Source: an uncultured bacterium (GTDB lineage: Bacteria; Patescibacteriota; Patescibacteriia; Patescibacteriales; UBA12465). From it: a DNA stretch of 64,000 nucleotides. The stretch spans positions 16,363-80,362 of the forward strand of contig CALKWQ010000016.1 of NCBI GenBank assembly GCA_938003925.1, given 5' to 3'. Below are positions 7,386 through 31,286 of this stretch, piece after piece. The position numbers and the translations under genes are program-made. Each line of letters opens with the position of its first letter. Position 1 is the first letter of the stretch. A model generated the notes under the pieces. It ran no database searches. It was not told the DNA's origin and saw only the letters and a program-made list of their open reading frames with translations.

Positions 7386-7399
7386 TAAAGGAGAACACA

Positions 7400-7828: not shown

Positions 7829-7850
7829 TAAGCTAATAAAGGAGATGAGC

Positions 7851-9053: not shown

Positions 9054-9078
9054 TTATAGCATCTATTGATGTTATGAT

Positions 9079-9114
9079 CCTACCCGGCTAGCCGCCTCTC
9101 CCTAGCCGGGTAGG
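9079..9114 (+). terminator. intrinsic terminator-like hairpin after the capsid gene
   Basis: CCTACCCGGCTAG-(10 nt loop)-CTAGCCGGGTAGG forms a 13-bp perfect GC-rich stem in AT-rich DNA. Confidence 0.7.
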
Positions 9115-9131
9115 TTAAATATGGAGGTAAT

Positions 9132-9900: not shown

Positions 9901-9908
9901 GGTTTTAA

Positions 9909-10445: not shown

Positions 10446-10446
10446 A

Positions 10447-10740: not shown

Positions 10741-10741
10741 T

Positions 10742-13317: not shown

Positions 13318-13337
13318 CCAACAAAGGAGGAAGCAAA

Positions 13338-14255
13338 ATGGCAACAGATTTAATGATTGGTATTATGAAGGCCAGTATTAATGGTGGATCTATAGGTTCT
13401 TTAAAGAGTGGCTCATTGACACTTAAGCCACAGTATAAAGAGCATAAGTCAGGATTTCCTCAAATTACTGACATTAAGGTTCCAGAAATTATTACTGGTA
13501 CATTTAAGTTTGACTGTGAGGAAATTGGTTTAATTAAGGGCCATGCTGGTGCAGGTGTGGCTGCGCTTGGTTCTGGTGTTCCTTATAATGTTGATGTTGA
13601 TTGTGAGGCACCAACAGCACAAGGTGGTGCGTTTAAAATGACAGGCTCTGGTTATATTAAGGGCGTATCTGGTCAAGTAAACGCTAATGACTTTGGTGCA
13701 ATGTCAATTGAAGTAGACTGTGTTCCTATGGGTGGATCTAACTCTGCGCTTATTAGTTTCACTAATATGGCTGGGCCAGGATCAAATACAATTGCTGCAC
13801 CTAACTATAGTCATCAGGCTATTACATCAGATTCAGATAACTTAGCTTTTGGTACCCCAACAGTTAATGGTAGTAATTGTCGTTCATTTAACTTTAATGC
13901 AACAGGTAACTTTAAATACCATACTTCTGGATTTCCACCAGTTATTGACTTAGCTATTATGGAATCAAATGAGTTTACTCTATCTGCTGAATTTGAAGAT
14001 CCTTCAGCAGGCTTATTAACAGATGCATTAGCTGCTTTAACACCAGGTAATCTACCAGTAACCGGTAAAACCGTAGCTGGTATCTACTCAATTATTGGTG
14101 GTACTGACGTTACAGTGACTCTAAAGAATGCCATGGTTGAACCTGACTTATCATTTAACCCTGGTAATGATTGGAATGGTGTAACGGTTAAATGTACTGC
14201 ATTATTACCAAAAGGTACATTACCAACAGCTGGTTGGGCTATGGAAATAGCATAA
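13338..14255 (+). CDS. major tail tube protein
   Basis: It follows the canonical order tube, chaperone, frameshifted chaperone, tape measure. It has a strong RBS (aaaggaggaagcaaaATG) and a 13-bp terminator hairpin after it. Confidence 0.65.
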   Translation: MATDLMIGIMKASINGGSIGSLKSGSLTLKPQYKEHKSGFPQITDIKVPEIITGTFKFDCEEIGLIKGHAGAGVAALGSGVPYNVDVDCEAPTAQGGAFKMTGSGYIKGVSGQVNANDFGAMSIEVDCVPMGGSNSALISFTNMAGPGSNTIAAPNYSHQAITSDSDNLAFGTPTVNGSNCRSFNFNATGNFKYHTSGFPPVIDLAIMESNEFTLSAEFEDPSAGLLTDALAALTPGNLPVTGKTVAGIYSIIGGTDVTVTLKNAMVEPDLSFNPGNDWNGVTVKCTALLPKGTLPTAGWAMEIA

Positions 14256-14270
14256 TTTGCTAAATATAAT

Positions 14271-14303
14271 ATGCGGATTGTAATAAAATGTTACAATCCG
14301 CAT
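14271..14303 (+). terminator. intrinsic terminator-like hairpin after the tail tube gene
   Basis: ATGCGGATTGTAA-taaaatg-TTACAATCCGCAT forms a 13-bp perfect stem, followed by gttattat. Confidence 0.65.
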
Positions 14304-14346
14304 GTTATTATAAAGTAGTTTAAAAGTTACAGTGAAGCAAATAGGC

Positions 14347-14400
14347 TGAAACAGCGTTTATAAAGTAGGCTAGTATAAATATTAAGGTAATAAATAACAC
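14347..14400 (+). promoter_or_regulatory. conserved promoter-like cassette, copy C (TGAAACAG-N17-AGTATAAAT-N12-AATAACAC)
   Basis: One of three near-identical intergenic cassettes. It ends 22 nt before the ATG at 14423. Confidence 0.5.
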
Positions 14401-14422
14401 TAAATCACAAAAGGAGAGTAAA

Positions 14423-14998
14423 ATGGAGAAGTTAGCTGCTGGTAAATTTGGTATTACGCTTTCTGGAGAGGCACAGACAGTCGTAATTACATTTGGCTTA
14501 AGAAGTGATATATTACGTCTTATAACTAAAGCACAATTAGAGTATCGTAGCTTGTCTGCTAAAAGTATGTTACCTACTGAGATGAGAGCTAAACTAGCTG
14601 AGCTAGTAGAAACGTTAGACGCAGAAAGAGCTAAAGAAGAAAAAGATGAAGCACGTATTACAGAACTTCAAAACCAGGTAAATAAACTATATGAAGATTC
14701 TATTAAGATTATAGACGATAATAAGGATAAGCTCATTGAAGAACTTGCCTTAGGCTCTATAGATTTAACAGATAGTCTAATTGCTGACATTTTATCACTA
14801 GTGCTTACAAAACGTAATGATAAAGGTGAAGTAATAGGAAAAGTCTCTAAGGATGATATTTTATACGGCGCTCAGTTTGCTAATGATGGTGATGAGTTAC
14901 TTCAGTTAATTGAAGGTGTAATGCTATATTTAACTGACACACTAAAAAAAATTCAAGTAGTGAACCAAATGCTGACCAGTCTCGTAAAGAACGACTAG
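14423..14998 (+). CDS. tail assembly chaperone (gpG-like)
   Basis: 191-aa acidic helical ORF between the tail tube and tape measure genes. RBS is aaaaggagagtaaaATG. Confidence 0.65.
   Translation: MEKLAAGKFGITLSGEAQTVVITFGLRSDILRLITKAQLEYRSLSAKSMLPTEMRAKLAELVETLDAERAKEEKDEARITELQNQVNKLYEDSIKIIDDNKDKLIEELALGSIDLTDSLIADILSLVLTKRNDKGEVIGKVSKDDILYGAQFANDGDELLQLIEGVMLYLTDTLKKIQVVNQMLTSLVKND
14944..14951 (+). promoter_or_regulatory. slippery A8 run: programmed -1 frameshift (or transcriptional slippage) site
   Basis: The site reads C-TA-AAA-AAA-AT in frame 0. The -1 frame is open from 14950 straight into the 15082..15312 ORF. Confidence 0.6.
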
Positions 14999-15312
14999 CG
15001 GCTATTAGAAAGGCAAAAGGCCTACCTGAACCAGATGAGTCTAAAGATATAGAACTCACTATTTATGATTTAATACAAATTATGTGCAATAGTAATCCCC
15101 AGGTAGAACTAAACACTATCTGGGGTTACACACAGGAGGAGATTCTTCATCGTTGGGATATATGGAAGAAATTTGATATAGTAACTAGAATATTTGGTCC
15201 AGGAAAAAAGGAACAAGATGAATCACAGACCCCGGTAAATACTAATGCTACAATGTCTGCATTAGCCAATTTATTCGGGCCTAATTTTATGCAAAATCCA
15301 AGTGAGGGCTAG
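14950..15312 (+). CDS. -1 frame extension of the tail chaperone (gpGT-like C-terminal part)
   Basis: I translated the -1 frame by hand from 14950 (NSSSEPNADQSRKERLAAIRKAKGLPEPDESKDIELTIYDLIQIM...). It has no stop until 15312. The predicted fusion is about 296 aa. Confidence 0.6.
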   Translation, partial: NSSSEPNADQSRKERLAAIRKAKGLPEPDESKDIELTIYDLIQIMCNSNPQVELNTIWGYTQEEILHRWDIWKKFDIVTRIFGPGKKEQDESQTPVNTNATMSALANLFGPNFMQNPSEG

Positions 15313-15313
15313 C

Positions 15314-18300
15314 ATGGCAGCTAATAATTTTTCTAACAGTATTAAAGGCCTAGAGAACCTAGATAAAGAATCGTTACCTAGCAATGATCAGGCAATAGTT
15401 GATGTTACTGGTGAAGCCAGTATAAACGCTAGTGATGTTTCTCTTTTACTTAAACCAACTATAGACCAAAGGGCCTTTAAAGATGCTACTGATCAAGTAG
15501 AAAAGCAAGTAGCTTATATAAATAGGCTAATGGCTAGTGCTGGTCAAAAATCTGAAATTGGTAAAAAAGGCACGTACACATCTACAGCTGGCTTTGAACA
15601 AATAAACGCGGCTATGGCCCAGTTTAGTCAAACTGGTGACTATAGTAGCTTCACTACTGAATTAAAGAAACAGTTGGAAGTAGGAAGAAAAAAGTCTGGT
15701 AGTGAAGCTATGCGTAAGGCGGCTATAACAGCCGCTAAACAATTTAATACATTAACTATAGACGTAGAGAATACCTTTAAAGAGGGTGGTATTACAGGCG
15801 ATATACTGTCTATATCTAGTAAGCACAGTCAAGATAGTTCACCATCAACTATGATAAGAACAGACTATAAGAAACTTATAGCCTCTAGTATAAAGTATTG
15901 GGCCAATATTGGTAATCAAGCTAATGTAGAGTTATTAAAACAAGTAGAAGCTGGTCTAGACCAAGGCGCTAGCGAAGCTAGAAATGGTAATCCTAACTAT
16001 AGACTTGTTAATGCAGCTCAAATGCGTAGTGGTATAGTAAGCACTATTAATAGTAATCCTACCGCTACGCTACAAGGGGTTAACTTTTCTACTGATATTC
16101 AAAAATTAGTAAGTTTTATTGGAACTAAAAGCAAGGCAAGTACTTCAGCTTCAAATGCATTGTTAGGTGGTGTTAGTTTAGACCAGCAATTTATGAAGTA
16201 TTTTGGTCTTACTGATTTTACTCCTGGTAGATCAGTAACCCATATGGCTGACTTATTAGGCCTATTACCTAAAGTTTCTAAAGCACATGAAGGCGGATGG
16301 GACGTTGAAGTAACTGAACAAATAGGCGCTATTATACATTCATTAAGTGAGTATGAAAAAGGCCTAGCTGCCGGCAATACATCTATTCCACCAGTTGTTA
16401 AAAGTCTTAAAAGTAGACTTTCTCAGCCATCAGTTAGATCAGCATATCAGGGCAGAGTAATAGCTACTAGTGCTTTACAACACTTAAATCAAATAGCTAT
16501 AGGTAGTATACCGACTACAGAAGCTGCTGAAGAAAAGGCGTATAACCTAGTAAAAAATGTTTCTGCACAATCAGTAGGAAAATTAGTAGATTTTACTAGC
16601 CCAGAGTATAACTTACCTGCTACTAGTATATCTGATAGTCAGAAAGGTCTAGTTAAACAACAGCTAAGTGTATCTAGAGCAAAAGTGGCTAGTAGTGATT
16701 TATTTGATATAAGTCCAGATAGTGAAGGTCTAGAAAAGTATGCTATGCTACAAGCTGCTGCTCTAGTGCATCAATTAAGTGGCATAAAATATACAGATAA
16801 ACGTACACTTAGTCCTGATGATCAGGTTGGTATAGTTTCTGATGCGCTTTATAATAGATTAAATAGTGACTTTTCTCATAAGTTAAGAGATACTAATGGA
16901 CAAATTCATACAGGTGTTAGTGAGCATATAGACCTAGATAAAATAGTTTCAAATATAGATGGTCTATTAGTTAATAATGGTAAATTTACAGCGAACGCGT
17001 CTGGAGTAGGCACTCCTGATGCTACAGCTTTTATAGTTAACGCTGTTAAAAACGCTATATTAAGAGGCATAAATTCTGACCTAAAAATAGGTGGAATTGA
17101 TAATATAGCTTTAGATAAAACAGACTCTAGTCTTCCTAGAGAAGTGTTTCCAACACAAAGTGCTAAAAAGACAGATAATATTAGGCGTGATGTTGGCTTA
17201 AAGGCAGTATCTAAATTTATTCTTAGTAAAATTGGTACTGATGGTGAGCTAAATCTAAGCTCTGATAAGCTTGTTAGTGAAACTAGAAGACACATAGAAA
17301 ATGGTTTTTTTGAGCGAGATGAAAAAGAAGAATTAAGTAAGCCTACAACTGATAATGTTAATGCACTTACCGCGTATAAAGACTATGTTAGTAAGCTTAA
17401 TATAGCTAGGGGCTCAAATTATGAAAATACCTCAGCCCCAATAGACTACTTAACTAAGCATGGCTATAGTATAGTTAAACCACGTGAAGCCGGTGAAAAT
17501 GCTAATTATGAACATAGTGGTATACTAGGCCAAATGGAAGGACATCCAGATCTATTAGCTCATAGAGTGGTGCCTAAGCTAGATGGTAGCCTAGAACGAA
17601 GATACTTACTACCAGACATAAAAAGTCCTAATAAGCTACCAAAATCATTTAGTGATGTAGAAAATGATAACTATAGTCGTGAGTGGATAGCTCAAATAGT
17701 ATCGTATGCTCAGATGCTACCAGAGTCTATACGTAATTTTTTAGACATAGGCATATTAGCTGGTAAACCAAATGAACCAGGTAGTGAAGTTCTAGTTACT
17801 AAGCCATATAATGAGTTAGTTAAAAATCCAGTATGGGCAACATTAGTAGAAGAATTACATAAAGTAAAGGTAGGATCTGCAGCACATATAACATCATTAC
17901 CAAACAATATGTTACCAGCTGGCCCAGTACTTCAGGCAAACATAACAGCTGATGAGCAGAATAATGTTAATAGACTAATTAATGAAAGAAACGATATTGG
18001 CCCAAAATATGTTGAAAAATTAGTAAATTTGGCTAATAGGCGTGATGGTGCTTCTCAAGGTAGTTTAATATATGAGTATACTAAGCAAAATGTAACAGGT
18101 GGAGATAGCTTAAAATCAATAATAGATAGCATGTACAATGAGCACATATTTGGTCAAGTTAGTAAGGACCAATTTGCTTCTAATAGTTTATCTCTATTAC
18201 TAGAGGCCATAAATGTTCCAAAAGACAAGCGTAAAGATACTATCTTAGATAAATTAACAGGCAACTTTAGCCCAAACGAAACAATACAAAATAGACTAGT

Positions 18301-21300
18301 TGGTTTAGAGGTACAGGAAAAGCCTGATGCTCAACCTAAAATTTCTAAAATTACTAATGAGCAACTAAGAAAATACTTTAATAAAATGTCTAATAGCATA
18401 AATGAATTTTGGGCTGGGGCATTTGCTTCTGATGAATTACAGGGGAGAAAAGTATCAAATAAGTATGTTAAAACTCTTAATATAGATGTTGCAAATCAGG
18501 CTAGTTTACCAGGGGCTTTAAGCTTTGAAGACGCAGAACGTAGGGCTCGTATAGAAAAATCTCTATTAGCTGGCTATAATAGAGCAGACCTAGATGCACA
18601 AAATTTAGTATTTAGCGCAGAGGCTAAGAAAGCTGCTATAGGGACTTCAGGCGGCTCTAACTATTTACATACAGGTATAGCTCCTAATTATGCTAAAAAA
18701 TCAACTGATGGAGAAATAACTTATGAGGAAAGTATTGCTGAGGCTATACAGCGAAAGCAATACTATGCTACTCAACTTGACACATTTAAGGGTTCTAGTT
18801 CTACTTTTGATATACTTAATAAATTAAAGACTAAGGAAGACACTAAGCGTACATCAGACATAGCCGCAGAATTAAATAGAGTGCTTAGTCTACAGCATGC
18901 ATTTAATGAGTCTAATGAAGCTGATAAAGGAGCAACAGGTTTTCGATATGCTAGAGCATATCGTAGATTAGCGAACTTTAATGAGCCTAATATACTTAGT
19001 ATGGTTAGAGCTCCAGAAGATATGTTTAAGGATATGCCTGAATCATTTAGTACATCTTATGCAGAAGCTGCCAATAATTATAGTATTAACTCTCGTAGCT
19101 TTGTACCTACTAGCATTCAAAATAGTGATGAATTCTTAAAAAAATTAGAATCTAGAAAGAATAAGCTTTCATTAGATTCACAATTAAATAGATATATAGC
19201 TAGCTATATATCAGAAAATGAAGACACAAATCTTGAGCTTATTGGAACAAAATCAGACATAGCCAGTAAGCAAGAGGTAGAGGCTAAGGCTATAGCAAGT
19301 TTCTTGCAAAAGTACCAAAAACAGCCAGAAAAACAATCTGATGATCCAGTGTTATCTAATATACTAGCAGAACGTACAGACTTAGCCGATAAACATCAAA
19401 ACAATTTACAGAAACAGTTTAGAACAGCTGATACATTCGGTTTAAGCACAGAAAATTTAAGCCAGATTATTTCATCAGCTTCTACACTTTCATCTATTGG
19501 AGAGTTTAGCTCTATAGGCTCATATCTTGAAAAAGATATAATAGACTTTTCTGGTTCTAAACAATTAGCTCAGTTAAAAACAGCGGCTAATCTAAAACAA
19601 ACATCAAAATTATCAGGATCAGACTATCAACGGCAATTAGAAAATTATGCATCTAGTATAGCTGATCAAATAGCTGGCTTATTAGGCAACTCTAGTATTA
19701 TTGATTCTAAGACTAGTGGTAGTTTATACTCTACAGGAAGGAATGCTGAATCGGCTATAGCTAGATACACAAGTCTTAACTCATATATAGAACAAAAAGA
19801 ATTATTAAAACAGGAAGTAAGCCAAGATGACTATGAGTCTAGAGATAGGCTTAAAAAAGAGTTAAGTAGTTATAGAACAGATTTTGAAACGTTAGCCGAT
19901 CCTTCTGTTAGACTTACAAGCTTAAAAGATAAAATTATAACAAGCGATAGTTTACAAGTTTTTAAGCCAAGCTATATAGCTGATAAAGCCGATAGACTTA
20001 GTAAGTTACAAGATATGTCGTCAAGTTTACGCCTAGCTGTCGATCAGGGCGATATGTCTACTACACCTGAACTGTTAGATAATTTTGTATCATTACACAA
20101 GTTGTATAAAAAATCAGGATTAGACTATACTAAAGGTGGCTTAACTATAAGTGATATAATGTCACAGTATGACACTAGTAAGTCTATTTCTTCAAATTTT
20201 GGTGTAGATGGTGAACTAACTAATAAAGGTAACCAGTTTGTAGTAGCTTCACAAACACTTAAGTCTAGCTCTAGCGGAGCTAATAAATTTGATGCACTAA
20301 TAACAAAAGAAAAAGCAGCTTTAGCCGCAGTTAGAGAGCTTGAATCAGCTTTTACAGCAATAAGTAATCCTGACTTAGGTAAAATAGAGTCAGAGTTTAG
20401 AAACCTTTTAGAGACCATAAATGCAGATACTACGGCTCTATATAAACTGGAAGAAGCTAAAAAAGCAGCTGGAGGAAAACTATCAAGTCAAGACGAAAAT
20501 AAACTGGCTATTGGAAAAGAAAGAGTGCAGGCTAATATAACTACTGCACAAGAACTAGCTGAAAAAATGAAGCAAAAAGATAGAACAAAGGGCTTAACAG
20601 AAGCTGATTGGAAAGCTCAAGTAAGAGACGCTAGCCTAGAGCGTGAAGATCAGAAATATAGTCTTAGATCTAAAGCAACTAATCTTAATGCACTTATAGA
20701 CTCTGGTAAAGTTGGTAGCTCAAACAGATATAACGCTACACACGCGGAATTTGAAGAAGCAATAAGATTAGCCAAAGAGTTAGAAAGTCTCGGAGTAAAA
20801 ACTGGTCATGATAATAAAACTTCATTTGGTTTATACTCATCATCACAGCTTGAAACAATGATGAGCAATAGTGGCCATAGAGGTAAGCAACACTTAAGTT
20901 TTACTGAAGGCTTAGTAGATCAAGCAGCATGGAAAATGCAGTTTGGTGGTGCTGGCGTTGTATTAGGTGGTTTAAGCGCGTTAACTGTTGGAGGCTTTAG
21001 CGAAGCAAAAAAGTTTGAAGAGGACATGAAAAATGTTGAGCTAGTATCACAAGCTTCAACTATTCAATTAGATCAGCTTAAAAATAAAGTAGTAGAGTTA
21101 TCTACTACTTTCACTAATACTCCAGCTCAGCTTAGTGATGGTTTAATAATTTTAGGCCAAGCTGGTTATAAAGCTGCTGAATCATTACAGCTTCTAGGCC
21201 CTATAGCTCAACTAGCTACAGCAACAATGTCTGATTTAAAACAAGCTGCTGATATTACAACAACTGTTTTAATGTCATTTGATAAGCCAGTGGCTAATGC

Positions 21301-24300
21301 TGCTGAAGTAACTAATACATTAGCTGCAGCTACAATAGAATCTAAGTTAGAACTATCATCTTTAGGTACTGTACTAAACTATGTAGCTTCAACCGCACAT
21401 ACAGCTGGTATGTCACTTGAAGAAACTGAAACAGCTATGGGTATCATGTCTAATGCTGGTGTTAAAGCATCTACTATTGGTACTTCATTACGTAGCATTT
21501 TAGGTACATTAATAGCACCTACTGCTGCATTTAATAATGAATTGGCTAGAATAGGCTTAACAGCAGACGATGTAAATCCACAGATAAATTCAATGTCTAC
21601 TATTTTACAAAGGTTACATTTTAAAGGCTTTAATGTAGAGAATGCATACCAAGGTCTTGATAAAAGAATTGCCGGTAATATATCTACTTTAATGGCACAA
21701 GCTGATCAGTGGGATAGCTTCCAGTCTAAGATTACAGGTACTGATACTGCTGAAGCTATGGCCTATGGGCAAATGGATACATTTGGAGCTCAGTCTAAAA
21801 GACTAAGTAATACTTTTGATACTACTAGAATAGGTCTAATGTCTGGTGCTCTAGAGCCACTCAAAACTGCGGCTATGGCATCAAGTGAAGTATTAGAACT
21901 TATTGGCAAAGCTGCTGAAACTTCTACAGGTAAGGCTATAACTAGCTTCGCCACTACTGGTTTAGCCATAGGTAGTTTTATATCTATTTTAGGTGGTTTA
22001 AGATCAGCAGGATCTACTATACTTCCAGCACTAGGTGATGCAATTAAAGGCTCAGCTGCCCAGTGGCTTATTAGACCTACTGGTGATACTACGTCTAATT
22101 ATTTTAAAAATAAAACACAGTTTGTTTCAGCTGATAGTAATTTAGGTAAAATACTTAATACAACAACTGATATAAATAAACTACCAGTTAGTCAGCAAAG
22201 AATGCATCAAACAATAACATCACTTGGCGGTATGGCTTTTAATCTTCCTACATTAGCTATAACTGCTGGTCTTGGCTTAGCATGGGCTGGGTATAGCTCA
22301 TGGAAAGATTCTGACTTACCTGGTTTAGGAACTGGTAAAAATAGAATGATTGAGTCTAAAAGAAGCGCTGATAACCTTTCTGGATATATAGCAACCCTAG
22401 AAAAAGCTTCACAACAGCAGCGTAAATTAGCTCTATTTAACAGGGGTGAAAATTCTAGTAGTACAAGGGCTTTTGATGAAATGCTTATTAATACTGGAGT
22501 ATTTGCTAGTGTAAATGAATTAGGACAAACAGTAACGGCGGGCTATAAGTCAAATAAAGATATGGGAATTTTAAAACTGGTAAAGTCTAGGGATAGTATT
22601 GATCTAAAAACTTCACTTAGTATGGCAAAAGATGTGCAAAGAACTAAAACTTCAAAAGAAGAAATAGACTCAATGTTCAATTTTGCGCAAAAAAGTTATG
22701 ATACGGATAAAGAAGCTATTTCAGATGGTGGTAGACAAGCTTCTACCATGGTATCCGATTTGGCTATACGTAAATTAAAACGAGAAGGAAAATTTTATGA
22801 TGTAGACGCAGTTTTAAAAGAGGCAAATAATGCAGCACCAGGTGGAAGTCAGATGGCTCAGAGTATTAGAAATAATATACTGGCTGCGCATGAAGAGGCT
22901 ATGACTGTGCCTAATATGAGAGAGTCTAAAACTAGCCAAGCTCAAGATGCATATAGAGAATTACAGAGAATTGATGAAGATATTAACTTATACTCTTCTT
23001 TATTGAGTGGTAAACAGTTAAACGAAGGTGAGTCTAAGAGGGCTAAGAGTGTATTGCCTGAAAGGGCTAAGGCTTTTTTAAAACCAGTTATGAGTGATGA
23101 AAAATTTTCAAAAGCAATAGCCGAAGGCGGTTCATTTAATTTATTATATAAGCATGCGCTAACAGGGCTAGAAAAAGATGGTGATACTGATAAATTCTTT
23201 AATGCTATGCAAGTAATTGCAGCTGGTAGTGGATCTGCTAAAGGTACTAATATAAGAAAAGAATTTTCAGATGATCTTACACGTGTCCTATCTAAAAAAG
23301 GCTCTCAAGAAAGAATGGATGAATTAGCTAGACTAGGTAAAGATGCTGTATTTGAATCACCAGAAAAAATAATGGATAGATCAACATATTCTGAGTCTAG
23401 AACTAGGTTTATACAAGAAGGTACTTTTAAACTAGATAGATTTATTAACGCTAATGAAAAGCTAAAAGCTGCAAAATCTAAACAGTCTAGTTTAACAGCC
23501 GGTACACAGGAATATGATGTAGCTAGTAAAGCTGTAGAAGAGGCAAGGTCTTTATTAGAACGTCAAGAAGCAGAATTAAAACCATTCTTAACAGATAGTT
23601 TTAGATTTATGCTGCCTAATACAAATGATTCAAATAGAAAGTTTTTACAAAAAACTAGAGGATCCATTGGAATTGTTGGCTCAATGGGGCTGTCTAGTTT
23701 ATCATCTGATCAATATGATGATTTTGCTGAAAAAATGGATAAGCTTAGAGTAAGGCATGAGGAAACATTAAACCAAGATATAGTTAAAGGTAATATAAGT
23801 ATAAAACGTAAGGTACAGTTACAATATGAACTAGATGTAAAAGATACCTTACATGAAATGATTCTAAATGCTAACAAAGATGTATTTAAATACTCTGAAC
23901 TAATAGGTAGTAGTATTAAGCAGTCTATGGAGGCTTCCATAGGTAGTAAAACTCTAAAATTAGATTTTTCAAAGGTAGAAACAGATATAGAAGCCAGCAA
24001 TACTATTAGTAATATGAAGCTAGCTGGTAGATCAGTTGTTTCTAGAACTCCAGCTAATTATTTAGAATTTAAGAGTAATAGCTACAACAGCTTAATGCAG
24101 TCACCTATTGATAGCCTAAATATTCCTAAGTTTAGCCAAGATGCTATTTACCTAGTATCTACAGATGCTCAGGTAGAAAAGCTAAATAATAATCTGCGTA
24201 CAACTCTTGATATTCTAAACGAGACAAAAACTAGTCTAGCTATTACAAAAGCTCAAGATATTAGCAGTCTTGCTAATATTAATGATTCTGACTTAAGCAG

Positions 24301-27300
24301 ACAAAAGACCCTAGATCTTGAAGAAAAATACATTAATGGTAGAATAGAGGCTAATCAACGGGCTTTTAGTTCTATTAAACAAATATTAGAAGAAGAGATA
24401 AGACTAAGGGATCAGCTAGTAGATAAGATAGCAAAGGCAAAAGATGCACAAGCTGAGTCAACAAGAGACATTAGAGAGGTGTCTAAATCTTTATACAAAT
24501 CTGCTGGTATTGATGTAAGTGAGGATCCTAAAAAATTATTAGATAGCTTAAAAGCTAAAGAACAAGAGTATAATAAAAGAGTAGCTGGAGGTGATGTTGA
24601 AGGAGCTAATAAAATTATAAGCTCAATGAAGTCTGATGAAGTAAAAGAGCTAACATCAGGTCAATACGCAAATTACTATGTAAAAGAAGCTGGAGATATA
24701 TTTAGTAGAATGGAGAAAAAGCAGCCTGAGTTATATAACAATTATACATCAAATTTAGTAGAGAGAACTAATGCATCAAATAATACTTTAGATAGTGCTA
24801 GAGGTGATCTGGCTAAATTAATTTCAGACAGCATTCAACTAGCTAAGGATAAAGGTAGAATAAATGATGAACAAGCTTCAATATATAAAGATAAGTTTGT
24901 TAAACGCTTAGAAGCTAATAGTGGTAATCAAGAAATTGCCTCTTCAGTATTTACTGATTTTGCTAAGACACCAGTTTTACAGGAAAAGATGTCTGAAGGT
25001 ATGAATATAGAAATTATATTTAAACACTTAGCCGATGTTATTGGTACATCATTAAATCCTACAATAGACAAAGCAACTGAAGAACTTAAAAAGTTTATAA
25101 CTCAATTAAATAGCTTTGTGCCTATGTCTAAGCAGTCATTGAGTGATGTTACACCAACTGAGCAGGACGTAACTAAACTAATAGGTAATGATGCTGCAGA
25201 GGCTTTAGGTATTGGCAGCTTTAAAATGCCTAGGCTAATAGCAGAAAATAAACATAATAATGTAGATGGTTGGAATACTGGTAATGAGATACACTATACA
25301 GATAAAAAATCATTAATACATGAATTAATACATTCTAAAATAGCCTCTGAGGGTAAGCAATTTAAAGGCAATTACGCAGAAAAAGAGCTTGCTGAAGAAT
25401 TTGAAGTTAATAAAAGAATGGTACAGATGGGCCAACTTAATAGGTCTGATGTAGAGGATAGATTTGGCTTAGGACTTGATGCTGATTCTTCAAACCTTTC
25501 TTCTGAGCAGCTAAATAGCTTAATGGGCTCTAGGGCTAGTAAGCAGTATGCACAAAAAACTAGATATTCACTTAATGATGAAGTACTAGCTAATTATAAT
25601 AGTCAACCCCAATGGAAAAGAACTACATCTAATGTAGTTCACACGGTACTGCCGGCAGTTTCAGCAACTATAGGAGGTTTAGTCGCTGGCGCAGCAGCCA
25701 CACCAGAAACATTTGGAGTAGGTACAGTACCAGCTGCTGCAGCTGGTGGTGCTTTAATGTATGGTGCTGGTAAACAAGGGTCTAAACTGATAGATAAGTA
25801 TGTATTAGGCCTACCTGATAAGGAACTACCAAAATTCAACAATCCTATTATTAATTCAGCGTATGAGGCTACGTACGATGTGGCAGAAGGCGCGGCTATG
25901 GAAGCTGGTGGTGTTCTTATGGCAAAAGGATTAGAATATGCCAGTCCATATGCCATTAATGCTACTAGAGCTATTGCTAAACTAGGAAAATCTAAGCAAA
26001 AAGTTAGTGTTAGTAATAATAGCTTAACATCTGCGCAATATGTTCATACAAGTGGTAGACCTATAGCTGAACTTAATCAGGATAGTACTCTGTTTGTATC
26101 TCCGATAGATAATATAGAAGCTTCTCTAGCTAGGTTAAATAGTGGAACCGCTATAACTTATGGCGTGCGTGCTGAAAAATCTGCTAATATATTTGATATA
26201 ACTAATATGGCTAATAGAAAAAAGTTTATAAAAGCCTATGTAGAGGCCAATAAGAATGAATATCCAAATATGTCTAAAAAAGAGCTAATGCCTAAGCTTA
26301 GAGATAAAGCTGCAGAAATATTTGATGGAGCAAATACTACTATTAATGGAGAACTGAAGCATGGTGAAAAACAAGACTTTCAGTACTTAGAAGATGGCAG
26401 CCATGAAATATTACCTACTATTAGACGTACTTTAGACCACTTAGGTGCCGATGGTTTAAAAATGAAAGACGCAGGTAATCCGGCTATAGCTATATTTAAT
26501 AAACACAAGTTTAATGTAACTGGACCAAATGGAACAAAAGTTCCAATTATGGGAGAAGAAGTACCATTAAGAAATATATTTGAAACACCAGTAGAAGCTG
26601 TAGCCTCACAAATAAAAAATAATAATCCTGCATATAGATTTAATGCAGACCCAGTTTTAGGCATGTATGATTCAGTAAAAAATATTTCAACTCCGGCTAG
26701 ATGGGCCAAACTTAGATCATTATCACCAGCAAGAATGATGAAAAACTTAACTGGTGAAGAAGCAGTTAAAGCATCGGCGTATGCAACAACAAAATTAGCC
26801 CTAGCATCCTCAGTTGGAGGTGGTAGTCAATTATTTAACTCATTAATTATGACTACTGATAAAAAAGAGCCAGCTAAAACTATTGAGCAAACAATAGCTG
26901 AATCAAAAGAAAATTCAACAGGTATATCTAATGAATCTTATGCTAGAATAGAAAAAGCACAAAATGAAAGAGCAGCTTTAGAGTCTAATAGATTAACAAC
27001 TATAGCTAAGAAAAAAGATAGCCGTAATAATGCTTTATATAGTCTAAATCCAGAGGCTGCATCAGATAGTTCAATAAGTGAAATGATGGCTAAATCTAGT
27101 GAACAGCAGACACAGTTTGATATATTTGAGACCAAAGGGGCTACCGGGCTTTCAAAATATCTAAAGAAACAGGGCGCTACAAAATCAGAGATAGCTGATA
27201 GAGTTAAATATGTTGGAGAAATAGTAGAGTCAAGTAAAAATAGTGCCGTTGTAAATAGTGGTATACAGCAATCATCAACACACTCTAATATATCGACTAA

Positions 27301-27925
27301 AGATGCGCAAGCTAAACAGTTTAATGGTGCATCATTAGCAGTATTTGGACCAACTTTAGACAAAGAAACTAATAGTGATATTTTTAGAGACAGATATAAT
27401 AAAGCTGTTAATGAATATGGTCAAATTAGAACGTCTATTATTGGCATAGATGGTAAAATAAAGTCAATAGGTATTAATGCATCTGCTTTTGAAAGAGACG
27501 AAAATGGTGGATATAAAACAAGTATAGGTAATTCAACTACTTATTTTAGTAAGGATTCAGATGAGGCTAAGGTAATAGAGGCTCAAAAAGGATACTTAAA
27601 AAATCCAGTACCAAAGTTTTCATTAGCAGATGAAGCAGTTAAGGCACCATTGAGTTCTACTGAATCTGTAACCAATTCTAGTGATAAGCTAATAGCCGCA
27701 CTTGATAACTTACGCTTAGCTTTTGAAAAAAATCCTTCTACTAGTACAGAAAAAGCTTCAAGTACAGGTAGTGTATCAGTTTCAGTTAATGCACCAATAA
27801 CAGTTGCTGGTCAGCAGTCTACGCAACAGGATGTATCAGTAATTGTTTCTAAAATATGTAATGATTTCTTTAATACTGAATTTAATGCTAGATATATAAA
27901 AGCAGTACAAACTGTGAGTTTATAA
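15314..27925 (+). CDS. tape measure protein (about 4,200 aa)
   Basis: Uninterrupted 12.6-kb ORF after the chaperone pair. It has a TP901-type core-like segment (FEEDMKNVELVSQ...GIMSNAGVKASTIGTSLRSILGTLIAP) and Gly/Ala-rich hydrophobic segments. I prefer the ATG at 15314 (GAGGG 5 nt upstream) over the GTG at 15302. Confidence 0.9.
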   Translation: MAANNFSNSIKGLENLDKESLPSNDQAIVDVTGEASINASDVSLLLKPTIDQRAFKDATDQVEKQVAYINRLMASAGQKSEIGKKGTYTSTAGFEQINAAMAQFSQTGDYSSFTTELKKQLEVGRKKSGSEAMRKAAITAAKQFNTLTIDVENTFKEGGITGDILSISSKHSQDSSPSTMIRTDYKKLIASSIKYWANIGNQANVELLKQVEAGLDQGASEARNGNPNYRLVNAAQMRSGIVSTINSNPTATLQGVNFSTDIQKLVSFIGTKSKASTSASNALLGGVSLDQQFMKYFGLTDFTPGRSVTHMADLLGLLPKVSKAHEGGWDVEVTEQIGAIIHSLSEYEKGLAAGNTSIPPVVKSLKSRLSQPSVRSAYQGRVIATSALQHLNQIAIGSIPTTEAAEEKAYNLVKNVSAQSVGKLVDFTSPEYNLPATSISDSQKGLVKQQLSVSRAKVASSDLFDISPDSEGLEKYAMLQAAALVHQLSGIKYTDKRTLSPDDQVGIVSDALYNRLNSDFSHKLRDTNGQIHTGVSEHIDLDKIVSNIDGLLVNNGKFTANASGVGTPDATAFIVNAVKNAILRGINSDLKIGGIDNIALDKTDSSLPREVFPTQSAKKTDNIRRDVGLKAVSKFILSKIGTDGELNLSSDKLVSETRRHIENGFFERDEKEELSKPTTDNVNALTAYKDYVSKLNIARGSNYENTSAPIDYLTKHGYSIVKPREAGENANYEHSGILGQMEGHPDLLAHRVVPKLDGSLERRYLLPDIKSPNKLPKSFSDVENDNYSREWIAQIVSYAQMLPESIRNFLDIGILAGKPNEPGSEVLVTKPYNELVKNPVWATLVEELHKVKVGSAAHITSLPNNMLPAGPVLQANITADEQNNVNRLINERNDIGPKYVEKLVNLANRRDGASQGSLIYEYTKQNVTGGDSLKSIIDSMYNEHIFGQVSKDQFASNSLSLLLEAINVPKDKRKDTILDKLTGNFSPNETIQNRLVGLEVQEKPDAQPKISKITNEQLRKYFNKMSNSINEFWAGAFASDELQGRKVSNKYVKTLNIDVANQASLPGALSFEDAERRARIEKSLLAGYNRADLDAQNLVFSAEAKKAAIGTSGGSNYLHTGIAPNYAKKSTDGEITYEESIAEAIQRKQYYATQLDTFKGSSSTFDILNKLKTKEDTKRTSDIAAELNRVLSLQHAFNESNEADKGATGFRYARAYRRLANFNEPNILSMVRAPEDMFKDMPESFSTSYAEAANNYSINSRSFVPTSIQNSDEFLKKLESRKNKLSLDSQLNRYIASYISENEDTNLELIGTKSDIASKQEVEAKAIASFLQKYQKQPEKQSDDPVLSNILAERTDLADKHQNNLQKQFRTADTFGLSTENLSQIISSASTLSSIGEFSSIGSYLEKDIIDFSGSKQLAQLKTAANLKQTSKLSGSDYQRQLENYASSIADQIAGLLGNSSIIDSKTSGSLYSTGRNAESAIARYTSLNSYIEQKELLKQEVSQDDYESRDRLKKELSSYRTDFETLADPSVRLTSLKDKIITSDSLQVFKPSYIADKADRLSKLQDMSSSLRLAVDQGDMSTTPELLDNFVSLHKLYKKSGLDYTKGGLTISDIMSQYDTSKSISSNFGVDGELTNKGNQFVVASQTLKSSSSGANKFDALITKEKAALAAVRELESAFTAISNPDLGKIESEFRNLLETINADTTALYKLEEAKKAAGGKLSSQDENKLAIGKERVQANITTAQELAEKMKQKDRTKGLTEADWKAQVRDASLEREDQKYSLRSKATNLNALIDSGKVGSSNRYNATHAEFEEAIRLAKELESLGVKTGHDNKTSFGLYSSSQLETMMSNSGHRGKQHLSFTEGLVDQAAWKMQFGGAGVVLGGLSALTVGGFSEAKKFEEDMKNVELVSQASTIQLDQLKNKVVELSTTFTNTPAQLSDGLIILGQAGYKAAESLQLLGPIAQLATATMSDLKQAADITTTVLMSFDKPVANAAEVTNTLAAATIESKLELSSLGTVLNYVASTAHTAGMSLEETETAMGIMSNAGVKASTIGTSLRSILGTLIAPTAAFNNELARIGLTADDVNPQINSMSTILQRLHFKGFNVENAYQGLDKRIAGNISTLMAQADQWDSFQSKITGTDTAEAMAYGQMDTFGAQSKRLSNTFDTTRIGLMSGALEPLKTAAMASSEVLELIGKAAETSTGKAITSFATTGLAIGSFISILGGLRSAGSTILPALGDAIKGSAAQWLIRPTGDTTSNYFKNKTQFVSADSNLGKILNTTTDINKLPVSQQRMHQTITSLGGMAFNLPTLAITAGLGLAWAGYSSWKDSDLPGLGTGKNRMIESKRSADNLSGYIATLEKASQQQRKLALFNRGENSSSTRAFDEMLINTGVFASVNELGQTVTAGYKSNKDMGILKLVKSRDSIDLKTSLSMAKDVQRTKTSKEEIDSMFNFAQKSYDTDKEAISDGGRQASTMVSDLAIRKLKREGKFYDVDAVLKEANNAAPGGSQMAQSIRNNILAAHEEAMTVPNMRESKTSQAQDAYRELQRIDEDINLYSSLLSGKQLNEGESKRAKSVLPERAKAFLKPVMSDEKFSKAIAEGGSFNLLYKHALTGLEKDGDTDKFFNAMQVIAAGSGSAKGTNIRKEFSDDLTRVLSKKGSQERMDELARLGKDAVFESPEKIMDRSTYSESRTRFIQEGTFKLDRFINANEKLKAAKSKQSSLTAGTQEYDVASKAVEEARSLLERQEAELKPFLTDSFRFMLPNTNDSNRKFLQKTRGSIGIVGSMGLSSLSSDQYDDFAEKMDKLRVRHEETLNQDIVKGNISIKRKVQLQYELDVKDTLHEMILNANKDVFKYSELIGSSIKQSMEASIGSKTLKLDFSKVETDIEASNTISNMKLAGRSVVSRTPANYLEFKSNSYNSLMQSPIDSLNIPKFSQDAIYLVSTDAQVEKLNNNLRTTLDILNETKTSLAITKAQDISSLANINDSDLSRQKTLDLEEKYINGRIEANQRAFSSIKQILEEEIRLRDQLVDKIAKAKDAQAESTRDIREVSKSLYKSAGIDVSEDPKKLLDSLKAKEQEYNKRVAGGDVEGANKIISSMKSDEVKELTSGQYANYYVKEAGDIFSRMEKKQPELYNNYTSNLVERTNASNNTLDSARGDLAKLISDSIQLAKDKGRINDEQASIYKDKFVKRLEANSGNQEIASSVFTDFAKTPVLQEKMSEGMNIEIIFKHLADVIGTSLNPTIDKATEELKKFITQLNSFVPMSKQSLSDVTPTEQDVTKLIGNDAAEALGIGSFKMPRLIAENKHNNVDGWNTGNEIHYTDKKSLIHELIHSKIASEGKQFKGNYAEKELAEEFEVNKRMVQMGQLNRSDVEDRFGLGLDADSSNLSSEQLNSLMGSRASKQYAQKTRYSLNDEVLANYNSQPQWKRTTSNVVHTVLPAVSATIGGLVAGAAATPETFGVGTVPAAAAGGALMYGAGKQGSKLIDKYVLGLPDKELPKFNNPIINSAYEATYDVAEGAAMEAGGVLMAKGLEYASPYAINATRAIAKLGKSKQKVSVSNNSLTSAQYVHTSGRPIAELNQDSTLFVSPIDNIEASLARLNSGTAITYGVRAEKSANIFDITNMANRKKFIKAYVEANKNEYPNMSKKELMPKLRDKAAEIFDGANTTINGELKHGEKQDFQYLEDGSHEILPTIRRTLDHLGADGLKMKDAGNPAIAIFNKHKFNVTGPNGTKVPIMGEEVPLRNIFETPVEAVASQIKNNNPAYRFNADPVLGMYDSVKNISTPARWAKLRSLSPARMMKNLTGEEAVKASAYATTKLALASSVGGGSQLFNSLIMTTDKKEPAKTIEQTIAESKENSTGISNESYARIEKAQNERAALESNRLTTIAKKKDSRNNALYSLNPEAASDSSISEMMAKSSEQQTQFDIFETKGATGLSKYLKKQGATKSEIADRVKYVGEIVESSKNSAVVNSGIQQSSTHSNISTKDAQAKQFNGASLAVFGPTLDKETNSDIFRDRYNKAVNEYGQIRTSIIGIDGKIKSIGINASAFERDENGGYKTSIGNSTTYFSKDSDEAKVIEAQKGYLKNPVPKFSLADEAVKAPLSSTESVTNSSDKLIAALDNLRLAFEKNPSTSTEKASSTGSVSVSVNAPITVAGQQSTQQDVSVIVSKICNDFFNTEFNARYIKAVQTVSL

Positions 27926-28686
27926 TGAGTCTTATTAGCTTAAACTTAGGCACAGTTAGATCTGAAATAAACGGTAAAAATTTAGGCTGTGTTACAGCTG
28001 TAGACTTAGATATGTCTACAGCTGTAGTATCTACGTATAAAAATGGTACAATAATAAGTCCAAAATCTCATAAGCTATTAAAACCTTACGGTGTATTATC
28101 TATAACTACTGAAGAATTTGGAAATGTTACTTCTATTATAGCCGATATGCTTAATAATTTAGCAGTTGATAGCATAGAGGCTGTTAATTTTGATTGCTTT
28201 AGCATTACTGGTAAAGTCTATTTAATTCCACAGTTTAGTTTTAGTCTTGGATCATGGACTTCTATAACAATAAAACCAATAGTTAAAAATTTTAATTTTG
28301 TTAATAAGCCGTCTCCAAGTAGCGTTATACAATCAATGCCTAATAGGGCTATTACTGATAATACTGACAATTTATGCTATGCTATTGATTTAAATGGTAA
28401 ATTATTAAGTAGTTTAACTTTTGATACTAAATGTAATTATGAGCTTATATTTGATAGCTATGAGCAAGAAATACTAGATTGTGTAATTAATTCCTTTAGT
28501 GTTGAAATAAATGCTGGGATAATAGATTTTGAATCAACTGATATACCTACTGAATTTGATCTAAATTTTAATCTAATTGGAGGCCTGTACCAGTTAAAGA
28601 TTAAAGATGCCATAGGTATACCACAGGGCTTTAAATCTTCTAAGGACTATAATACTTGGCATGTAAAAATAATAGGTAGTCTATGA
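27925..28686 (+). CDS. putative distal tail protein (position only)
   Basis: TAATG-coupled to the tape measure stop. It is the first gene after the tape measure. Confidence 0.35.
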   Translation: MSLISLNLGTVRSEINGKNLGCVTAVDLDMSTAVVSTYKNGTIISPKSHKLLKPYGVLSITTEEFGNVTSIIADMLNNLAVDSIEAVNFDCFSITGKVYLIPQFSFSLGSWTSITIKPIVKNFNFVNKPSPSSVIQSMPNRAITDNTDNLCYAIDLNGKLLSSLTFDTKCNYELIFDSYEQEILDCVINSFSVEINAGIIDFESTDIPTEFDLNFNLIGGLYQLKIKDAIGIPQGFKSSKDYNTWHVKIIGSL

Positions 28687-29258
28687 ATATTTTTAAGCTA
28701 GAAACAGAAGAAGGCTATTCTATATTTAATGGTATTAGTGTAGTTAATAAACACCTAATATCTTATTACAATTTTAATTTCTTAACTTCTCTGGCTACTG
28801 TAGCTTTAAAAAGAGATCAAAATGATAAAAAATTAGCTTACAATCAGTCTATTACAGGCCTATATGTTGATAAAGATTTAAATAAAATACCATTAGATGA
28901 TAGTAATGTAGCGTCCTTGTACAAACTATATAATGCCATTACATTTAATTTAGATGAAATTAGCTTAACACTAGCAGAATCAATATTGTCTAAATCGGCT
29001 AAAGCTTCTATATATATTGATTATATTTTAAAACTACATACTATGGCTAGTTCTGATGATATATCTAGTTATTCATATGCGAGTATAATCGCTAAAATAA
29101 ATTTGCTTAAGCAGCTTTTTGAACAAAATAAAATATCATGTAGCTTAGAAACACTAGATAGCTATACTGGTATATTAGCCCCTGCATCTGTAACTTATAC
29201 ATATAAGCCTAGTATAGGCTATGGTACTTTACAGGGAACAATTCTATATGAGTCTTGA
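28683..29258 (+). CDS. hypothetical tail-tip protein
   Basis: 191-aa ORF with an ATGA start/stop overlap. Confidence 0.5.
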   Translation: MNIFKLETEEGYSIFNGISVVNKHLISYYNFNFLTSLATVALKRDQNDKKLAYNQSITGLYVDKDLNKIPLDDSNVASLYKLYNAITFNLDEISLTLAESILSKSAKASIYIDYILKLHTMASSDDISSYSYASIIAKINLLKQLFEQNKISCSLETLDSYTGILAPASVTYTYKPSIGYGTLQGTILYES

Positions 29259-29814
29259 TGGTATGGATATTAGTATATCGTATTCTTCTTCATTTATTTT
29301 AGAAGAAAAACAATATTTACTAAGACAGTTTGTGGTTAATTCTAAATTAAGTACTGGTCATAGTATTATTGAACATAGTAATATGTTTGGTCAGAGAATA
29401 GTATTAAGTATTAACAAAAAAAAATTACCAGCAATTAGTATAAATGATGACAACATATATAAGGAAGTATACACTTATTATGAAGCAATAAGCATAAGCT
29501 ACGGTGCTAGGGCTATTAAAGATGTTACTAAGTATATAGCTATGGATACTGACTGTAAAAATTTTTATAGCGAAAGACGCAGACTACTAAGTTTAATTAA
29601 TAATGATAACATATCCATAGATAAGAAATTAACTTATATAACTGATTTAGAATCTTTAATAAGACCAGTACTTAATACACCTATAACTATTGATGGCTAT
29701 TCACATATGTTAGCGGAAGAAAATTCATTAGCTTTAAACAAGTGGACAAATGGTCCATACTATGATATATCTTTAAATATTATAGCTTATAAAAAACTAG
29801 ATTTAGGAGCGTAA
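29248..29814 (+). CDS. hypothetical tail-tip protein
   Basis: The ORF is open from 29221. The ATG at 29248 gives an 11-nt overlap instead of 38 nt. It contains an A9 run at 29416-29424. Confidence 0.45.
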   Translation: MSLDGMDISISYSSSFILEEKQYLLRQFVVNSKLSTGHSIIEHSNMFGQRIVLSINKKKLPAISINDDNIYKEVYTYYEAISISYGARAIKDVTKYIAMDTDCKNFYSERRRLLSLINNDNISIDKKLTYITDLESLIRPVLNTPITIDGYSHMLAEENSLALNKWTNGPYYDISLNIIAYKKLDLGA

Positions 29815-29815
29815 A

Positions 29816-31284: not shown

Positions 31285-31286
31285 TC

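Follow-up and report, generated by a model that had tools for sequence, protein, structure and literature searches.

The tails of siphoviruses are typically 50-200 nm long. Gordonia phages Hotorobo, Monty and Woes, with tape measure protein (TMP) genes of ~9,970-9,984 bp that encode up to 3,327 amino acids (aa), have tails of ~540 nm, described as 'among the longest' (PMC4982279). In Thermus phages P23-45 and P74-26, the TMP is 5,002-5,006 aa in size and the tail is almost 1 µm long. The N-terminal ~1,100 aa of the P23-45 protein are a folded virion RNA polymerase (RNAP) (PMC10770324). Here, we describe a TMP gene of 12.6 kb, located in a 64,000-nucleotide (nt) stretch of contig CALKWQ010000016.1 from an uncultured bacterium (assembly GCA_938003925.1, positions 16,363 to 80,362 of the forward strand). 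We refer to this entire stretch as the window. The original prediction, made from the letters of the window, was that few phages have TMPs this large, with the long-tailed Thermus phages as the example; the sizes above agree with this.

Results

A single gene encodes a TP901-type tape measure protein

On the forward strand, an open reading frame (ORF) runs without interruption from either position 15302 (GTG) or 15314 (ATG) to position 27925. The single 12.6-kb ORF of the original prediction is therefore real. Translation probably begins at the ATG at 15314, resulting in a product of 4,203 aa, because a Shine-Dalgarno-like GAGGG is found 5-6 nt upstream and this ATG is one base past the stop codon of the -1 frame in the preceding chaperone gene. 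At the other end, the TMP stop codon overlaps the start of the next gene (TAATG, 27923-27927). Note that, in DNA with a GC content of 34%, chance cannot yield 4,200 consecutive codons without a stop. Base composition shows no break within the ORF, and Tandem Repeats Finder detected no DNA tandem repeats of note. Windowed self-BLAST of the protein found one marginal internal match (aa 754-813 against aa 1345-1402; E 6e-4).

The gene product is a TP901-type TMP. Family PF10145 (PhageMin_Tail) matches aa 1925-2102, with 115.4 bits against a cut-off of 33.2 (E 4e-33), and TIGR01760 (tape_meas_TP901) matches aa 1897-2220, with 103.4 bits against a cut-off of 28.8 (E 1e-29). Furthermore, eleven PHROG tape-measure families match the protein. 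Their profile alignments begin at ~aa 1473-1690 and jointly cover ~aa 1473-3047. In a Kyte-Doolittle scan, Gly/Ala-rich hydrophobic stretches were apparent at aa 1875-1898 (nt 20936-21007) and aa 2207-2240 (nt 21932-22033), with a further stretch just beyond (Table 1). A TP901-type core and Gly/Ala-rich hydrophobic segments had been predicted at ~20.9-22.3 kb. This was accurate: the TIGR01760 match occupies nt 21002-21973 and the hydrophobic stretches fall within 20936-22291. Conversely, the prediction of ~1,000 aa downstream was wrong, since ~1,875 aa follow nt 22.3 kb.

Giant size is shared by a rare family of uncultured phages

We searched 1.84 billion representative proteins, using HMMER, with a query comprising aa 140-885 plus aa 3295-3748 of the window protein. 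The search recovered database protein P0040, which is identical to the window protein, and four full-length relatives: P0041 (4,493 aa), P0042 (4,133 aa), P0043 (4,030 aa) and P0044 (4,311 aa). The search also yielded two fragmentary proteins (P0045 and P0068). The five full-length TMPs are colinear over their entire lengths, with 28-30% identity. All five match PF10145, and hydrophobic segments comparable to those in the window protein are also present in the relatives. Gene order is shared too. In all four relatives, the TMP gene is preceded by genes for a 153 aa protein, two paralogs of ~300 aa, chaperone G and the T frame (see below), and followed by genes encoding ~275, ~197, ~195, 287, 204 and ~545 aa.

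Contigs encoding the relatives are from four samples (SRR22891767, ERZ1426842, SRR11449212 and SRR29054611), and reach 119.9 kb in length. A variant nearly identical to P0041 occurs on 11 contigs (maximum 134 kb), and the window TMP itself on 2 contigs (maximum 144.7 kb). In addition, an IMG/VR relative (L001/L005) is colinear for its N-terminal 946 aa, up to the contig end. The original prediction had named an assembly error, fusing two genes, as a way in which it could fail. Such fusion is excluded because colinear relatives are found in syntenic loci from independent samples. We conclude that the ORF is one genuine gene, and that giant size is a trait of the family, conserved in a rare uncultured phage group, and not an assembly artefact.

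Among the best matches in a collection of 5.8 billion proteins, those outside the family that match the core region are 681-2,090 aa in size, and align over the core only. Hence, as predicted, the window TMP is very large. Searches for homologous proteins with aa 3001-4203, and with aa 1-1200, gave no match. Similarly, there was no match when the TMP gene was compared with phage genomes using megablast, when aa 101-1800 and aa 2300-4203 were compared with 50,697 phage records using tblastn, when IMG/VR was scanned with the TMP, or when genome contigs were scanned. No cultured phage record thus matches the sequence on either side of the core. IMG/VR scans with the head protein, the tube protein or the N-terminal alignment found only 3-4 short contigs, and just 2 were recovered when metagenomes were scanned with the T-frame alignment. 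Relatives of the window TMP are rare in public data.

Judged by the head protein, the nearest cultured phages are the siphoviruses Seuss, JWF and Lumi (~26% identity). No sheath-sized gene was seen in the window. The family probably represents an uncultured, siphovirus-type phage lineage, with contigs of ~120-145 kb, a head protein and TMP core distantly like those of Seuss and JWF.

Parts of the protein differ in how sequence and length are conserved

The five-sequence TMP alignment (window protein plus P0041-P0044) was used to derive statistics for each region of the protein. We also generated composition, Chou-Fasman and heptad profiles. These failed a control, using the P74-26 TMP, and are given little weight.

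In the N-terminal extension (aa 101-1250), 13.9% of columns are invariant and the length is 1,150-1,245 aa across the five proteins. Invariant Gly or Pro residues occur at 2.5 per 100 aa, about threefold more than the 0.7-0.8 found in ruler-like parts. Conserved motifs include DVENTF, NPxxxxQGVxF, GxSxxHMAxxxGxLP, EHxG..GHPDLLAxR, RRYxLxDxKxP and YAQxLP..I...LDIG. Such features suggest that the extension is folded, as one or more domains, and fit this better than a featureless helical ruler. The original prediction described ~1,870 aa upstream of the core as helical and rich in K, E, S and A. The upstream 1,860 aa are not uniformly of this kind, since aa 101-1250 are rich in invariant Gly and Pro. 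HMMER found no homologs of aa 140-885 outside the family, among the 1.84 billion proteins, and Pfam searches at E<=10, using N-terminal subregions of all five relatives, found no consistent match. A P23-45-type RNAP, which has a conserved metal-binding DxDxD (DFDGD) motif in its ~1,100 aa, was considered for the N-terminus and rejected; none of the five proteins has a DxDxD within aa 1-1900. Elsewhere, DxDxD occurs only at non-conserved positions (aa 2622 of the window protein and aa 2761 of P0044).

The pre-core segment (aa 1251-1860) has 8.5% invariant columns and just 0.8 invariant Gly or Pro residues per 100 aa. Its length is 590-610 aa, except in P0044, where it is 781 aa, and aa 1401-1500 are a hotspot for insertions and deletions. 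In P0044 (locus L011), a tandem duplication of ~180 aa is found immediately before the core (aa 1463-1638 against aa 1647-1826; 31-35% identity; E 3e-17 and 9e-14). Tandem duplication is a classical route of TMP lengthening, and this example shows how TMP length changes in the family. Next, the core (aa 1861-2240) is exactly 380 aa long in all five proteins, free of gaps, and 38% of columns are invariant.

The adjacent segment (aa 2241-3300) behaves differently. Only 4.7% of columns are invariant and pairwise identity is 0.17-0.37. In all five proteins, the length is 1,042-1,083 aa, and so constant to within about 2%. Because length is held while sequence drifts, we read this segment as the clearest candidate for a ruler in the protein. 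An AlphaFold2 (AF2) model has long helices for aa 3004-3300, at low confidence.

The hypervariable C-terminal region (aa 3301-4100) contains two features absent from the original prediction: an HExxH motif, at aa 3336-3340, and hydrophobic, Gly/Ala-rich sequence at aa 3439-3485 (nt 25628-25768). The motif is kept, at the aligned place, in three of the five proteins (the window protein, P0041 as HELRH and P0044 as HEAYH) and lost in P0042 and P0043. By a rough estimate, ~0.06 occurrences per protein are expected by chance. Neither Pfam nor PDB searches matched the HExxH region to a peptidase family. The Gly/Ala-rich sequence is part of a module (aa 3431-3545) that also occurs near the N-termini of ~30 stand-alone proteins, of 213-900 aa, in the collection of 1.84 billion proteins (HMMER E 7e-12 to 1e-4). 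The shared pattern is [HD]T.LP..G..GG..A.TPE..G.GT.PA..GA.GYA.GK...EGA..E.GG..GK..E.A.PY. One such protein, P0049 (900 aa), is encoded by the last structural-module gene of P22-like podovirus contigs. The gene order is P22 portal, scaffold, P22 coat, SU10 adaptor, Collar, Phage_stabilise, proteins of 220, 308, 360 and 900 aa, then endolysin. Another, P0053, closes the structural module of a different small phage contig. In P22 itself, ejection proteins are encoded where the P22-like contigs have P0049. The module proteins have no Pfam or PHROG assignment, except for a weak match of P0050 to the N4-type virion RNAP family, in the N-terminal part of the latter (E 4e-4).

After the module, a pattern was seen by eye (YHG/YVHTSG ... 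FxTP/FVSP ... GYDAV/GADGL ... AVFN/AIFN). It spans aa ~3570-3745 of the window protein, aa ~120-345 of P0068 and aa ~3740-4060 of P0041, which has an insert of ~200 aa. BLASTP support for the pattern is weak (E 0.07-0.8) and Pfam gives nothing at E<=10; it may be a small domain. We also tried reading aa ~3560-3745 (YVHTSG...FVSP...AIAIFN) as similar to H-Y-E ADP-ribosyltransferases, and set this aside, since neither Pfam (E<=10) nor BLASTP supports it.

Finally, the C-terminal end (aa 4101-4203) is 103-125 aa long in the family, with 8.7% invariant columns (9 columns) and a pairwise identity of 0.28. For lambda gpH and T5 pb2, the C-terminal part is at the tail tip. The TMP C-termini of other phages are also located there (PMC11948020), and we therefore presume that this end docks at the tip. 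By analogy, the variable region next to it might be the first to meet the host envelope, and might act in penetration or channel formation. Hypervariability of aa 3301-4100 fits with host-specific adaptation.

A conserved frameshift site and tail tube candidate precede the gene

The TMP gene was predicted to occupy the canonical slot, after the tail tube gene and a frameshifted pair of chaperones. The chaperone pair is well founded, with the A8 run and -1 frame conserved in six loci; the tube protein is assigned by position and conservation only. Briefly, the A8 run falls in the last 55 nt of the gene for chaperone G, within an open -1 frame that spans 14938-15312. Loci L001, L002, L003, L011 and L012 all conserve the CTAAAAAAAAT site as well as the T-frame peptide (TIWGYTxEEILHRWxIWKKFDIVTRIFG); L010 has A6. 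Judged from these signals, the upstream genes have the classical G and G-T chaperone arrangement, with a predicted -1 frameshift.

The tube-position protein is 80-88% identical to its orthologs in six related loci, compared with only ~30% for the TMP. It has no match in Pfam, PHROGs, a PDB profile search or, by tblastn, in the 50,697 phage records. Comparing the N- and C-terminal halves, using hhalign and a 13-sequence alignment, gave a weak signal of internal duplication (P=0.007; 22% identity; 101 colinear columns). All six related loci have two ~300 aa tube paralogs, 'a' and 'b' (e.g. L001 9803..10690), with 36-40% identity between the two. Only 'b' is present in the window, where tblastn detected no remnant of 'a'. 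In L010, a gene for a 206 aa protein, with a weak HNH match, is inserted between the tube and chaperone genes (8465..9085); this gene is absent from the window.

The gene predicts an unusually long tail

Dividing tail length by TMP length gives 1.62 Å per aa for the Gordonia phages. For the Thermus phages, the value is about 1.6-1.8 Å per aa over the whole 5,002 aa. Scaling the entire window protein in this way predicts a tail of ~630 nm if each residue accounts for 1.5 Å, and of ~680 nm if it accounts for 1.62 Å. When just the 2,050 residues of aa 1251-3300 are counted, the estimate falls to ~310-330 nm. Both estimates are well above the range typical of siphoviruses, and the TMP very probably specifies an unusually long tail. 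From the gene, we consider a tail longer than 0.3 µm quite likely, and the chances of 0.55 µm or more evenly balanced. The ~0.6 µm of the original prediction assumes that every residue serves as ruler. It stays plausible because whole-length scaling predicts the P23-45 tail well, despite the RNAP in this protein, and a tail of ~0.3 µm is plausible too. The internal duplication signal in the tube protein, which recalls the two-domain trimeric tube of P74-26, would point weakly towards a long tail; T5 pb6 is another two-domain, pseudo-hexameric tube protein.

Other genes in the window

Coordinates of the TMP gene, parts of its product and other genes are in Table 1. The protein encoded directly after the TMP matches no family in Pfam or PHROGs, and all relatives have a gene for 274-284 aa at this place. 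Downstream, ~26 kb of large genes presumably encode the tail tip, baseplate and fibres. Among these, the 1,257 aa protein is likely, from its domains, to bind receptors or glycans. The L010 counterpart (29337..33218; 1,293 aa) has the same weak Pfam marks. GC content falls immediately after the TMP stop codon, from 0.33-0.38 for the head genes through to the TMP (window 1..28000), to 0.27-0.31 (28000..54000). This step may reflect module exchange. At ~55 kb, both coding strand and GC skew switch, with genes at 55364..58418 and 59409..63986 on the reverse strand. Here, a DNA metabolism module begins, including genes for an SbcC-like ATPase (E 2e-42), a metallophosphoesterase (weak match), a thymidylate-synthase-like protein and an NTP pyrophosphohydrolase.

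The head-tail structural module also contains a kinase gene. At the same slot, relatives encode either 371-381 aa proteins matching PF18762 (Kinase-PolyVal; L010 4752..5867 and L011 1..420) or other proteins of 214-549 aa. Kinase-PolyVal is reportedly a domain of 'polyvalent' proteins in phages and conjugative elements (Iyer et al. 2017).

Table 1. Positions of the TMP gene, regions of the encoded protein, and further genes of the window
Feature	Window position	Strand	Residues	Basis or remark
TMP gene	15314..27925	+		4,203 codons plus stop; product identical to database protein P0040
Family-specific N-terminal extension, motif-rich	15614..19063	+	101-1250	Invariant columns, motifs; probably folded domain(s)
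Helix-prone, extensible pre-core segment	19064..20893	+	1251-1860	Few invariant Gly/Pro, indel hotspot
TP901-type core and flanking hydrophobic segments	20894..22033	+	1861-2240	PF10145, TIGR01760, PDB 9g8s_w
Ruler-like segment (candidate)	22034..25213	+	2241-3300	Length held, sequence free; PHROG TMP profiles reach ~aa 3047
Further Gly/Ala-rich hydrophobic stretch	22223..22291	+	2304-2326	Kyte-Doolittle scan
Hypervariable C-terminal region	25214..27613	+	3301-4100	1.6% invariant columns; length 536-946 aa
HExxH motif (HELIH)	25319..25333	+	3336-3340	Only HExxH in protein
Gly/Ala-rich hydrophobic module	25604..25948	+	3431-3545	Common to stand-alone phage proteins
Conserved C-terminal ~100 aa (VSVxVNAPITV...VTKICxxFFNxEF..RY..AV)	27614..27922	+	4101-4203	Presumed tip docking
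Head-decoration-like protein, 459 aa	2054..3433	+		phrog_2647 (E 3e-79); also PHROGs annotated tail fibre/virion structural
Head-module protein, 280 aa	5153..5995	+		N-terminus matches 'L-shaped tail fibre assembly' PHROGs
P-loop kinase, 165 aa	12378..12875	+		AAA_33 (E 3e-20); Zeta_toxin (E 4e-14); mid head-tail structural module
Putative major tail tube protein, 305 aa, paralog 'b'	13338..14255	+		Position and conservation only
Tail assembly chaperone G, 191 aa	14423..14998	+		Position; 191-205 aa ORF conserved in all related loci
A8 slippery run (14944-14951) and -1 frame extension (G-T fusion chaperone)	14944..15312	+		Conserved site and peptide
First gene after TMP, 253 aa, presumed distal tail protein	27925..28686	+		TAATG overlap, translationally coupled
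Tail protein, 1,257 aa, Fn3_assoc / CHB_HEX_C_1 carbohydrate-related domain	33967..37740	+		Weak Pfam marks
Protein with subtilase domain, 588 aa	48736..50502	+		Peptidase_S8 (E 5e-23); among large genes downstream of TMP

Discussion

Our data are best explained by a bona fide TMP, encoded by a single gene of an uncultured lineage, in which further parts have been built around an ordinary TP901-type TMP. We consider this explanation, with the part functions proposed below, likely. It draws on direct observations of gene integrity, TMP identity, frameshift signals, giant size throughout the family, regional conservation and module sharing. The first part would be an N-terminal extension of ~1,860 aa, with family-specific folded domain(s) in the first ~1,250 aa and an extensible helix in the next ~600 aa. 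The second would be the conserved core, with hydrophobic, membrane-active segments, and the third a ruler of ~1,060 aa, conserved in length but not in sequence. The fourth would be ~800 aa of fast-evolving C-terminal sequence, carrying the HExxH motif and the Gly/Ala-rich membrane module, and the fifth the conserved C-terminal end. During assembly, the TMP would be coated by the G and G-T chaperones, and the C-terminus would dock into the tail-tip complex. The tube would then polymerise along the TMP, to its N-terminal end, so that tail length scales with TMP length. At infection, the TMP would leave tip-first, and the variable region and hydrophobic segments would breach and line the envelope for passage of DNA. 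The protein is probably also a mosaic, with at least ~800 aa, and possibly ~2,000 aa, serving functions other than measurement.

Several points weigh against this explanation. First, the folded state of aa 101-1250 is deduced solely from motifs and the conservation statistics. The AF2 models, made from single sequences, were unusable (predicted local distance difference test scores of 35.6 for aa 1-1200 and 39.0 for aa 3004-4203), and, within the P74-26 TMP, composition metrics did not distinguish the established RNAP portion from the remainder. Second, the HExxH motif is missing in two of the five relatives and matches no peptidase family, and the stand-alone homologs of the module are labelled as ejection proteins from gene order alone. 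Third, tail length is a prediction from the gene sequence. Finally, the siphovirus type is less sure, since the tube protein is of no recognisable family and the PDB match for the TMP (9g8s) is from a myophage.

The strongest alternative, which we regard as possible though clearly less probable, is that the whole 4,203 aa chain is ruler, as the original prediction assumed. It would lie within the tube in an essentially extended or helical form over its full length, with a tail of ~0.63-0.7 µm. A scaling of ~1.6 Å per aa does hold for the Gordonia phages (3,327 aa, 540 nm) and for P23-45/P74-26, despite the folded RNAP. The N-terminal region also keeps its length, to within about 8%, across relatives (1,150-1,245 aa). 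However, the same region has a threefold higher density of invariant Gly and Pro, together with enzyme-like motifs, and the size of aa 3301-4100 differs widely among relatives (536-946 aa), as would not be expected of an element that sets length. A crude heptad scan found periodicity only in aa 1900-2600 and aa 3000-3300, and this method is weak.

A somewhat weaker proposal, on balance unlikely, is a fusion of TMP and cargo, of the P23-45 kind. In this case, the N-terminal ~1,250 aa would form an enzyme or effector that travels in the virion and is delivered along with the DNA, and only the remainder would measure the tail. Precedent is provided by P23-45 gp96, in which the N-terminal ~1,100 aa are a virion RNAP. 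Moreover, the N-terminal region of the family is the best conserved outside the core, and relatives have a gene for a polyvalent-protein-type kinase in the same structural module. Set against this, the N-terminal part has no conserved DxDxD, the protein is not similar to the P74-26 TMP, and there is no match to any enzyme in Pfam, PDB or PHROG. Hence, no activity can be named. In a more specific form, aa 101-1250 would be a new virion-delivered enzyme or effector, analogous but unrelated to the P23-45 RNAP, and the hypervariable C-terminal region a fused cassette of ejection-protein type; we consider this form doubtful. If it is true, giant tape measures would not be mere rulers, and would provide a general means of carrying cargo through long tails.

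It is improbable that the product is a polyprotein, cleaved into an N-terminal protein, a TMP of ~1,500-2,000 aa and a C-terminal ejection-type protein, with an ordinary tail resulting. Close relatives of the core are indeed 1,700-2,000 aa in size, the C-terminal module stands alone elsewhere, the tail module includes a gene for an S8 subtilase, and TMP processing is known, as in the conversion of lambda gpH to gpH*. Conversely, ~2,000 aa separate the core from the conserved C-terminus, for which tip docking is expected, the strict length of the 1,060 aa segment makes sense only with core and C-terminus in one chain, and no conserved cleavage motif was identified in the protein. Lastly, an artefact, due to assembly or sequencing error or pseudogene-like read-through, is suggested only by the unusual size, with nothing found in favour, and can be dismissed as next to impossible given colinear ORFs (4,030-4,493 aa) between the same neighbours in five independent assemblies, conservation through both ends, including the last 100 aa, and uniform composition.

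The composite TMP favoured here has some wider implications. The five colinear sequences separate regions conserved in length, conserved in sequence or hypervariable, and so provide a testable map of ruler and cargo. The family also offers a second test, of mesophile type, of how tail length relates to TMP length beyond 4,000 residues, and of how long tubes assemble. If the tail proves to be ordinary, the rule of 1.5 Å per residue fails for this family. Through the shared module, siphovirus TMPs are connected with podovirus proteins encoded at the position of ejection proteins, and a common membrane-penetration element is possible.

Comparison with known systems

Gp22 of Caulobacter phage Seuss (1,822 aa) has the same core as the window TMP, with 32% identity over 284 aa. 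The arrangement is also similar; hydrophobic segments lie beside the core and a chaperone pair with a -1 frameshift precedes the gene. Among cultured phages, Seuss also has the head protein closest to that in the window (26% identity). However, the window TMP is 2.3 times longer, and its core starts at ~aa 1,900, rather than ~aa 445 (the Seuss core is aa 444-723). The N-terminal ~1,860 aa and C-terminal ~1,900 aa of the window protein have no detectable counterpart in Seuss, or in the 50,697 phage records.

Only one solved chain has similarity to the window TMP, and only in the core. This is gp59 of Clostridioides phage phiCD508 (PDB 9g8s chain w; 1,424 aa), matched with E 2e-16, or 2e-18 using the family profile. 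The phiCD508 TMP has a predicted three-helix transmembrane region and a C-terminal domain that contacts the tip protein. Unlike the siphovirus-type lineage proposed here, phiCD508 has a contractile tail. Its TMP is one third of the size, with only a short piece modelled.

The ~110 aa module is shared with stand-alone proteins (P0046-P0075) of P22-like and SU10-like podovirus contigs. In these phages, which have no TMP, the module is N-terminal, in the product of a separate gene, whereas it is embedded at aa 3431-3545 in the window protein.

With regard to size, the Gordonia phages and the window both have a very long TMP gene, accounting for ~10% or more of the genome. The window TMP is ~26% longer, and the Gordonia phages are not among the core matches listed. 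More similar in scale are P23-45 gp96 and P74-26 gp95. As in the window, each is a giant TMP from a single ORF, in which membrane and ruler parts come after a large N-terminal portion, and the remainder has an HExxH-type motif and hydrophobic segments; the tube protein of the window may also have two domains. There is, however, no sequence similarity between the window and P74-26 TMPs, the best BLASTP match (E 0.083) being in low-complexity helical sequence. The window protein lacks the conserved DxDxD signature of RNAP, and base composition is mesophile-like, with low GC, unlike that of Thermus phages. Because the proteins are not similar, we conclude that giant size arose independently in the window family and in the Thermus phages. 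Among comparators from the literature and databases, the family is the second-largest of TMPs after that of the Thermus oshimaviruses. What is new is the size and architecture of a known kind of protein, the TP901-type TMP.

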